Shown: positions 6,061 through 18,624, counted from the first letter of the stretch. The stretch: DNA of 18,624 nucleotides from Candidatus Micrarchaeota archaeon (GCA_043813365.1 JBDRLB010000037.1:1-18624), one strand, 5' to 3'. A program made the numbers and translations. Notes: generated by a model from the letters alone, not told the origin.

Positions 6061-6627
6061 CTAATCCGCCTCGACCACCTTGTCGCAGAACTGGCTCAAA
6101 TCCTTTATCAGCTTCTGGTCGGTCTCTTTCTCCAGCGATACAAGCACCATCCCCACCTTCCATAAACGCATCTTGCTCACGAGGAAATGCGTGAACTGCG
6201 CTACGGTGCCTGCTGAATTGTAAATCAGCATCGTCGCAAGCGAATCGATGAATATGAACCGGTTATCCTGCTCCATGCGCTCAACCAGCTGCGTAAGCGC
6301 GATGCTCAGTTCGGTGAGGTTGCGCGGCGAGGGCAGGAATATGCAGTTTTCCGTGCGTTCACCGCGCTTGCCTGTTGTCTGCGTAATAAGATCGAGGAAA
6401 TAGAGCCTTTCAAGATCAAGCTTCTCCTTCCCAAGCGAGGAGGTGAGGTTCTCATACGGCCTGTTGAATGTGACGTAAATTCCCGCCGAATCCTTTTCCG
6501 AAAGAAGCAGCCTCAGGGTTTCCACGTTCACTTTCATGTAGTTCTTCGAGCTCGTAACGAGCAGGATTACGTAATGCGAGGGAAGGCCCGCGAGCTCCTT
6601 GTGGAGCAGCCGTTTTATGTCCGTCAT
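6061..6627 (-). CDS. Inactivated KaiC/RecA-fold ATPase-like protein (DUF835-like)
   Basis: Retains GIYVTFNRP, LYFLD, Walker-B-like FIFIDSLATMLIYN and C-terminal SQFCDKVVE, but has no GxxxxGKT Walker A. ATG 6627 is preferred because a TATA box lies about 25 nt upstream. Confidence 0.75.
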   Translation of the reverse strand: MTDIKRLLHKELAGLPSHYVILLVTSSKNYMKVNVETLRLLLSEKDSAGIYVTFNRPYENLTSSLGKEKLDLERLYFLDLITQTTGKRGERTENCIFLPSPRNLTELSIALTQLVERMEQDNRFIFIDSLATMLIYNSAGTVAQFTHFLVSKMRLWKVGMVLVSLEKETDQKLIKDLSQFCDKVVEAD

Positions 6628-18001: not shown

Positions 18002-18179
18002 GATATGTTTCGGATAATGATAAATATTAAGCTAACTATGGCTCACGCTAACTATTGTAAAATAAAAATGCAGAAAGTGCTTTTTTGTATTTTACGCCGT
18101 ATAGGAAAACAATTCACTGAGAGTATCTTTCAGCCATCCTGATTTTCACTTCATTGAATCCATGAAAAAATGGCTGAGA

Positions 18180-18624
18180 GAAATGTGTTATGGTCTTTAG
18201 TAATGGTTGGCTCAAAAATCGCTTGCGCTTTTTTCTTACACCCCCATCCTATCGAACTTATCTGTTATAAGCGACCTATGCGGTTTCGTTTTAGGCATGG
18301 CTTCGTCCTTAGTTAGGCGGCAAAGTCAGAATCAATCAAATTTTGCCTGACTTCGCCTATGCCTTCAGGACTTATCCATTAGCGCGTAGCTACGCAGCTT
18401 GCCTTGGAAGACAGCTGCAATACCAGCGGCGCCGGTTCCCCGTTCCTCTCGTACTCAGAGAACCTTACCCTCAAACCGCAATGCACTTCTAGGAGATGCC
18501 ACCGAACTGTCTCGCGACGTTCTGAACCCAACTAACGTAGGTCTTTAATGGATGAACAACCCAACCCTTGGCGGCTCCTGCACCGCCAGGATGACCTGAG
18601 CCGATAGCGATGTACCAAACCGCG
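18180..18624 (-). rRNA. rrl: 23S rRNA, 3' portion (end of domain V and domain VI); the gene continues beyond the window end and the 3' end is approximate
   Basis: The reverse complement contains the A-loop UGUUC, GGGUUCAGAACGUCGCGAGACAGUUCGGU, the sarcin-ricin loop AGUACGAGAGGAAC (18442-18455) and GAUAGG...GUGUAAG...UACUAA, with helix pairings preserved (GGUC/GACC, UGCGGUUU/AAACCGCA). Confidence 0.97.
18313..18358 (-). other. 46-nt archaeal bulge-helix-bulge (BHB) intron in 23S rRNA helix 97
   Basis: The insertion splits the conserved GAAGGCAU|CUAAG. It folds as exon stem GUCCUGA/UAAGGAC, central 4-bp AGGC/GCCU, bulges AU|A and AA|C, and an 11-bp intron stem GGCGAAGUCAG/CUGACUUUGCC. Confidence 0.88.

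Follow-up and report, generated by a model that had tools for sequence, protein, structure and literature searches.

A probable 46-nt hairpin intron of the bulge-helix-bulge type in the helix 97 loop of a micrarchaeal 23S rRNA gene

The stretch of DNA analysed here (18,624 nt, hereafter the window) is an entire contig (C37) of a genome assembly designated G000. At its far end it carries, on the minus strand, the 3' part of a 23S (LSU) rRNA gene, a piece of 447 nt that spans positions 2581-2987 of the Rfam model LSU_rRNA_archaea (RF02540) and is cut by the contig end. This is the only piece of 23S rRNA gene in the assembly; of the rest of the rRNA operon only the 5' end of the 16S gene was recovered, with which contig C42 begins. 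A cmscan of the window returned LSU rRNA and no other Rfam family. A profile search of the assembly's own contigs with RF02540 gave no match, though cmscan of the window gives 327 bits, and we take this miss to be an effect of the truncated gene. Loci nearly identical to that of the window are labelled Micrarchaeota, in keeping with the DPANN-like host proposed in the initial annotation, which had been made from the sequence alone. The closest complete relative, G002 (locus L085, G002:C5 ~6330-6530), contains an insert of ~195 nt in the loop of helix 89, GAGUUCAUAUC[...]GACCACGCGG, which ends 8 nt upstream of the position at which the window's contig stops (18624); the helix 89 insert may be the reason why the rRNA operon of G000 did not assemble.

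The 23S genes of the order are unusual in other respects. Many of them are interrupted at more than one place, and numerous relatives within the order (for example G023, G030, G042, G057 and G016) carry further inserts of ~90-900 nt in the 3' part considered here, at about positions 109-113 and 174/175 of the 447-nt query (window:18178-18624:-). One of these sites lies near E. coli 2593, a known group I intron site, and another falls inside the sarcin-ricin loop (AGUAC|GAGAGG); the ~177-nt insert in the sarcin-ricin loop of G057 was folded, and its exon borders did not resolve cleanly. Within the peptidyl-transferase centre (window 18599-18612, minus strand) the gene reads UCGCUAUCGG, as against UCGAUGUCGG in E. 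coli (2501-2510) and in the Rfam archaeal consensus. The differences correspond to A2503C and G2505A, two near-universal bases, and are common to all 19 loci of the order that were inspected (L002-L028). Of 26 genomes from the order, counting G000, 25 contain this variant 14-mer, as does 1 of the 175 genomes that represent other orders of the class. Just 2 of the 201 genomes have the canonical 14-mer, and the other orders must therefore carry further variants or inserts there.

The alignment with RF02540 sets 49 nt of the window against 3 of the model within the hairpin loop UGAAGGCAU...AGGAC of helix 97, which the model writes as ggGCUGAAaGCAU-[3]-AGCcc, so that the 46 extra nucleotides described in the initial annotation are confirmed in this hairpin. 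Searched by BLAST with the 447-nt rRNA fragment, 48 of 60 genomes from the order gave matches, G000 included. In relatives lacking the insert the match breaks at query 266|313 while the subject coordinates on either side are adjacent, which places the insert at window 18313-18358; this border cannot slide, as the bases on either side differ. Among 30 loci that were fetched, three have an insert at the site (the window, G002 and G004), and the other 27 read TGAARGCAT followed directly by CTAAGG without interruption, the A/G position being the only one that varies apart from a single extra base in one locus and CTAAAGG in another. Excision of the 46 nt thus yields GAAGGCAU-CUAAGG, the sequence of the Rfam consensus and of each of the 27 relatives without an intron, and the conserved helix 97 sequence is restored as the initial annotation had predicted. 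Since the corresponding loop of E. coli rrlH, CTGAAAGCATCTAAG, occupies positions 2745-2759, the insertion lies between U2754 and C2755, the position given in the initial annotation. The features of the locus are listed in Table 1.

Table 1. Positions of the intron and of its structural elements in the window, with the evidence for each.
Feature	Positions	Strand	Evidence
23S rRNA gene 3' part, domains V-VI	18178..18624	-	Rfam RF02540, 327.5 bits
46-nt ORF-less BHB intron (very probable), E. coli U2754/C2755, helix 97 loop	18313..18358	-	RF02540, intron-less relatives, RNA contig
Outer helix h, 5' strand GUCCUGA (helix 97 stem, exon 1)	18365..18371	-	pairs with 18305-18311
Central 4-bp helix H, 5' strand AGGC (exon 1)	18361..18364	-	pairs with intron GCCU 18315-18318
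5' bulge AU|A, predicted cut between 18359 (exon) and 18358 (intron)	18358..18360	-	3-nt bulge in fold
Inner hairpin h', arms 18346-18357 and 18319-18330, loop 18331-18345	18319..18357	-	fold, compensatory changes
Central helix H, 3' strand GCCU (intron)	18315..18318	-	fold, covariation
3' bulge AA|C, predicted cut between 18313 (intron) and 18312 (exon)	18312..18314	-	fold, relatives, RNA contig
Outer helix h, 3' strand UAAGGAC (exon 2)	18305..18311	-	pairs with 18365-18371

When 87 nt around the insert are folded, the free energy is -34.6 kcal/mol (z = -5.79), and none of 200 shuffled sequences was as stable. Read 5' to 3', the elements GUCCUGA, AGGC, AUA, a 12-bp hairpin, GCCU, AAC and UAAGGAC form a near-canonical hBHBh' arrangement (window 18305-18371), exactly in the sense-strand order first read from the sequence. 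The two junctions, defined independently by the intron-less relatives and by an RNA contig described below, fall after the second base of each 3-nt bulge with the 4-bp helix between them, as had been proposed. The flanking GUCCUGA and UAAGGAC do form an outer helix, but not a continuous one of 7 bp: there are five Watson-Crick pairs, a G.A mismatch and then an A-U pair that adjoins the central helix. The inner hairpin has 12 bp, counting G-U pairs, and a loop of 15 nt. The 46 nt were also shuffled 200,000 times with the junctions kept fixed: a 4-bp central helix together with an inner helix of at least 3 bp formed in 179 of these sequences, and at least 11 bp in none. In the canonical substrate at tRNA position 37/38, the 5' strand from the exon likewise forms the central helix with the 3' end of the intron.

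These features (46 nt, no ORF, one 12-bp hairpin and a retained BHB core) are those of the hairpin (HP) type of intron (PMC4496867), and 46 nt are too few for an endonuclease ORF of the LAGLIDADG type. Other identities for the insert were considered and rejected. It is too short for the catalytic core of a group I intron (P3-P9, typically >200 nt), and cmscan found only LSU rRNA. A C/D-box guide RNA was discounted by eye, as just 2 nt separate the UGAUUGA and CUGA motifs and G002 does not conserve them. A mini-intron family common to tRNA genes or other loci was not apparent either: when the entire assembly was searched by blastn-short with the 46 nt, only the intron itself was recovered, the next-best match being of 18 nt (E 0.14).

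Sampling of 401 genomes of the phylum, 181 of which matched this part of the gene (the unpublished G086 is counted in this tally only), gave at least 11 Micrarchaeota carriers in 7 families, with inserts of 42-95 nt at the site among the matches listed. These are G000, G002 and G004 (46, 46 and 42 nt; family f1), G020 (43 nt; f2), G011 (90 nt; f3), G016 (95 nt; f8), G019, G023 and G058 (47, 47 and 65 nt; f11), G275 (54 nt; f19) and G240 (44 nt; f29). Presence varies even within the window's genus, as the species G003 and G005 have no intron. All four pairs of the central helix can form in 10 of the 11 carriers and three of the four in G011, and an adjoining inner helix of 3-12 pairs is found in every carrier. 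The 5' bulge is AUA in ten carriers and AUU in one, and the 3' bulge is AAC in nine and AGC in two.

In an alignment of the 11 carriers (A1), standard pairs form in 99.3% of 143 cells, and both partners vary in 7 of the 13 pairs; within the outer helix, three of the six counted pairs covary. None of 500 shuffles reached the observed values on four of five measures, and one did so on the fifth, the count of further pair types, while control alignments in which the partners were slid by 1-3 columns were only 23-43% paired. The interiors of the introns are unrelated between families yet still paired, and the Micrarchaeota families have no more than the 3' core (CCGCCUAA) and a low-complexity CUUUUCUUU in common, the exception being G019 and G058, whose interiors are 89% identical over 19 nt. 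The introns of G000 and G002 differ by compensatory changes, whereas that of G004, from the same genus, has a wholly different interior.

Occupation of the site in other archaea was followed with pattern scans of species-representative genomes, which are able to see inserts of 20-50 nt only. The first scan returned 40 stretches, among which six are real helix 97 inserts, all labelled Micrarchaeota or Norongarragalinales; the remainder comprised three insert-free rRNA genes, in which the pattern had begun at an upstream look-alike, and 31 bacterial chance hits outside rRNA. With lineage-neutral flanks, a second scan returned 20 stretches, two of them bacterial chance hits without the motif and 18 of them archaeal helix 97 inserts of 30-47 nt, labelled Micrarchaeota (7), Aenigmatarchaeota (3), Nanoarchaeota (1), Freyarchaeota (1) and “uncultured archaeon” (6). 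The helix 97 site is thus in use in several archaeal phyla and is not peculiar to the window's organism. In this second set, exon AAGC is matched by intron GCUU in six of six genes, and the 12 genes with exon AGGC have intron GCCU (seven), GUCU (four) or GCCC (one). Such compensation between exon and intron is needed by a splicing substrate and not by a retained hairpin. Insert sizes at the site range from 30 to 95 nt and none of ORF size was seen, the scans covering up to 50 nt and the BLAST pieces being those among the matches listed. Four of the introns (L086, L087, L089 and L103) have interior sequence in common (AGUUUGACAGCU...CAAGCUGUCG), and as their carriers are labelled Aenigmatarchaeota, Nanoarchaeota and “uncultured archaeon” they represent a sequence family that extends across phylum labels, unlike the introns of the Micrarchaeota.

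The window was also compared with the contigs of four sequencing runs, three of RNA (X1, X2 and X7) and one whose kind is guessed as DNA (X4); none of the runs screened contained more than 0.43 of the sampled words. The groundwater metatranscriptome X1 has a single contig of 355 nt (depth 24.4) that matches window 18190-18312 and 18359-18522 with no mismatches over 123 and 164 nt and skips exactly the 46 nt in between, so that the exons are joined at the predicted GGCAU/CUAAG junction; this support comes from one contig of one run in a third-party assembly, and an RNA library can contain DNA. No contig covering the intron was found in X1, X2 or X7, and mature rRNA retaining the 46 nt, which the initial annotation had named as the observation that would count against splicing, is accordingly not represented in these contigs. 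A contig of X4 over 18301-18408 includes the intron with no mismatches, in agreement with the genomic reality of the insert if, as seems probable, this run is DNA. A second X4 contig skips the 46 nt and differs at 8 of 129 nt, on which grounds we assign it to an intron-less relative. Short loose ends of 8-14 letters that span the junction in X2 and X7 belong to contigs that mismatch the window; they were attributed to relatives and not counted as support.

The two halves of the X1 contig differ in how well they discriminate. The 164-nt stretch of exon 1 is nearly invariant, with 159-163 positions identical in four other species of the genus, whereas the 123-nt stretch of exon 2 is diagnostic, as the four other species compared match at only 105-108 positions. 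Because the exon-2 stretch discriminates, the source of the X1 RNA must be much closer to G000 than these four species are, and its contig is without the insert. The contig may nevertheless derive from a near-identical strain that lacks the intron. It has a fold-back piece at one end, and at the other, below 18190, 14 letters that are unlike the window (18176-18189) and lie near the predicted 3' terminus of the 23S rRNA. These letters have no match in the G000 genome or its relatives, nor in the flanks of the G002 23S gene (≤2 mismatches, rRNA context). A circular pre-23S junction was tried as their origin and set aside, as neither the genome nor the flanks of the G002 23S gene contain a match; a difference between strains, a junction produced by processing or circularisation, or chimerism of the contig could each account for the letters.

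Both enzymes expected for removal of the intron are encoded in G000. EndA, a protein of 388 aa (contig C73), contains PF02778 and two stretches of PF01974. Its residues 12-388 give an end-to-end alignment (E 2e-128) with PDB entry 4fz2_A, which is annotated as a “tRNA intron endonuclease” and which we take to be the three-unit broad-specificity EndA of ARMAN-2. RtcB (PF01139) is found in three pieces on two contigs (322.6, 173.4 and 68.3 bits), located at contig ends (G000:C27:11425-13434 and G000:C7:31021-31758), with the C-terminal part ending the other contig. Profile positions 1-50 and 42-194 lie ~1.4 kb apart within a single open frame of 719 aa, and the large insert in this frame may be an intein. 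In the assembly, which is 88.6% complete, ARAGORN predicted 10 uninterrupted tRNA genes, or 21 tRNA genes with 12 predicted introns when introns were allowed; these counts are rough, the program not having been built for archaeal non-canonical introns, and many tRNA genes of G000 seem to be interrupted or otherwise unusual.

Taken together, the motif, the covariation across 11 genomes, the encoded enzymes and the X1 contig bear out the initial proposal of an ORF-less BHB intron, and we consider it very probable that the 46 nt are a hairpin intron cut by EndA, with the exons ligated by RtcB. Before splicing, the exon sequence AGGC, the 5' half of the loop, would pair with the 3' end of the intron (GCCU), giving a 4-bp helix flanked by the 3-nt bulges AUA and AAC, with the helix 97 stem outside it and the 12-bp intron hairpin inside. 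The single-chain EndA of G000 would cut after the second base of each bulge, and RtcB would join the exons, restoring the conserved loop GAAGGCAU|CUAAG; the released 46 nt would probably be circularised and degraded. No function of its own was detectable for the intron, which belongs to a group of small hairpin introns occupying the helix 97 site in several archaeal phyla.

The insert might instead be an expansion segment, the 46 nt being retained on helix 97 of the mature 23S rRNA as an additional hairpin. The rRNAs of DPANN and Asgard archaea do carry lineage-specific insertions, and the insert does fold as a stable hairpin. A retained hairpin, however, need neither pair its 3' end with the exon nor keep two 3-nt bulges, and the exchange of AGGC/GCCU for AAGC/GCUU, which holds in six of six AAGC cases, would be left without a reason; moreover the loop that the insert splits is near-invariant in all 27 intron-less relatives, the X1 contig joins the exons without the insert and none of the three RNA runs has a contig over it. 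An expansion segment is therefore very unlikely. Alternatively the 46 nt could be excised and the exons left unjoined, with the 23S rRNA in two pieces. Fragmentation of this kind follows the excision of intervening sequences from bacterial rRNAs, and contigs cannot show RNA ends, but the X1 contig spans the junction with flanks of 123 and 164 nt, RtcB is encoded, and the motif is used throughout the Archaea for splicing with ligation, all of which makes this outcome extremely unlikely. That the insert is an assembly artefact or a chimeric insertion in a metagenome-assembled genome could be suspected from the position of the rRNA at a contig end in an operon that is otherwise unassembled. We regard the probability as negligible, given that an independent genome, G002, has a homologous 46-nt insert with compensatory changes, that at least 10 other genomes have inserts at the same site and that the independent run X4 holds the intron form with 0 mismatches.

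A different question, which is compatible with a spliced hairpin intron, is whether the intron has decayed from a larger intron that encoded a LAGLIDADG homing endonuclease. Patchy presence in the genus and the class fits the gain and loss of a mobile element, and some 16S loci of the Thermoproteales have hairpin introns alongside endonuclease-bearing ones, with remnants also described (PMC4496867). On the other side, three 16S loci in the Thermoproteales likewise have hairpin introns only (PMC4496867), and at helix 97 the sequences show no trace of an endonuclease gene and none of the inserts, of 30-95 nt, is of ORF size within the reach of the scans (up to 50 nt) and of the BLAST pieces among the matches listed. 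The suggestion in the initial annotation that this is the remnant of a homing intron thus found no support, the largest insert at the site being of 95 nt, and we think such an origin unlikely.

It is conceivable, as a more speculative and rather improbable proposition, that LSU 2754/2755 is a pan-archaeal hot spot for protein-free BHB introns, gained repeatedly without a homing endonuclease. One genus has two introns with unrelated interiors at the site (G000 and G002 versus G004) as well as species with no intron there, and a sequence-related subfamily is common to metagenome-assembled genomes of different phylum labels. Introns might arrive if the EndA/RtcB reaction ran backwards on rRNA and the product was then reverse-transcribed and recombined, or they might pass between co-living DPANN cells.

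The helix 97 loop adds a site in domain VI to those at which rRNA introns occur, with covariation and RNA-level support, and small hairpin BHB introns are thereby extended from the 16S genes of Thermoproteota to the 23S genes of DPANN archaea. Inserts of this kind disrupt rRNA-based alignment, primer design and assembly, and the operon of G000 is indeed largely unassembled; rRNA annotation should not class such introns as expansion segments. Their patchy presence and unrelated interiors provide material on the spread of introns that lack an endonuclease. Together with the 12 introns predicted in 21 tRNA genes, the 23S inserts fit a heavy dependence of reduced genomes on EndA and RtcB.

Archaeal tRNA introns, at position 37/38 and at non-canonical positions, have exactly the same hBHBh' geometry, and processing by the same enzymes is expected; the host RNA here, in contrast, is an rRNA, and the intron of the window has no sequence relative in the tRNA genes of G000 or elsewhere in the assembly. 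The classic 23S BHB introns of Desulfurococcus, Staphylothermus, Pyrobaculum and Aeropyrum, studied by Kjems and Garrett and others, are reportedly released as circles, and some, for example in Staphylothermus, are said to be short and ORF-less. To our knowledge all of these lie in domains IV and V of Thermoproteota. The intron described here is likewise cut at a BHB core, according to the splicing model, but lies in domain VI and in the Micrarchaeota.

Introns in the rRNA genes of the Micrarchaeota have been noted before, in the 16S genes of ARMAN-type representatives in 2017 (PMC5498576) and in LSU genes by Nawrocki, Jones and Eddy in 2018, whose paper reports BHB introns beside group I introns in DPANN archaea, Micrarchaeota included, and catalogues group I introns at LSU 1923, 1931, 2500 and 2593 (PMC6125680, text and Table 1). 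Our observations resemble these cases in that BHB introns again interrupt archaeal LSU genes, including those of the Micrarchaeota, and in that relatives of G000 have large inserts near LSU/2593. However, the text and Table 1 of that paper contain no 2754 site, the BHB introns being shown in a figure only (PMC6125680). The main text of a paper on inserts in the rRNAs of the CPR has no mention of 2754, 2755 or H97 (PMC11270868), and no paper naming an intron at helix 97 or 2754 was found in the literature searched. Within these papers nothing contradicts the initial supposition that the site may be unreported; it is not peculiar to one organism, as it is used in several archaeal phyla.

Small hairpin BHB introns as such are already described in rRNA, and the novelty seems, in the literature searched, to lie in the helix 97 site. 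In the 16S genes of the Thermoproteales, Jay and Inskeep (2015) found small hairpin introns (<~50 nt) that keep the BHB at 7 of 13 loci, and in one case evidence of co-conversion with a neighbouring endonuclease-bearing intron (PMC4496867). The intron of the window shares with these the absence of an ORF, the hairpin and BHB core, the conserved rRNA position, the patchy presence and, as predicted, the same EndA/RtcB pathway (PMC4496867). It differs from them in its location in the 23S rRNA, in the helix 97 loop at 2754/2755, and in its hosts, which are Micrarchaeota, other DPANN archaea and one metagenome-assembled genome with an Asgard label (PMC4496867). A further difference from the Thermoproteales is that the 447 nt contain no neighbouring endonuclease-bearing intron, so that any co-conversion would have taken place without a visible partner.
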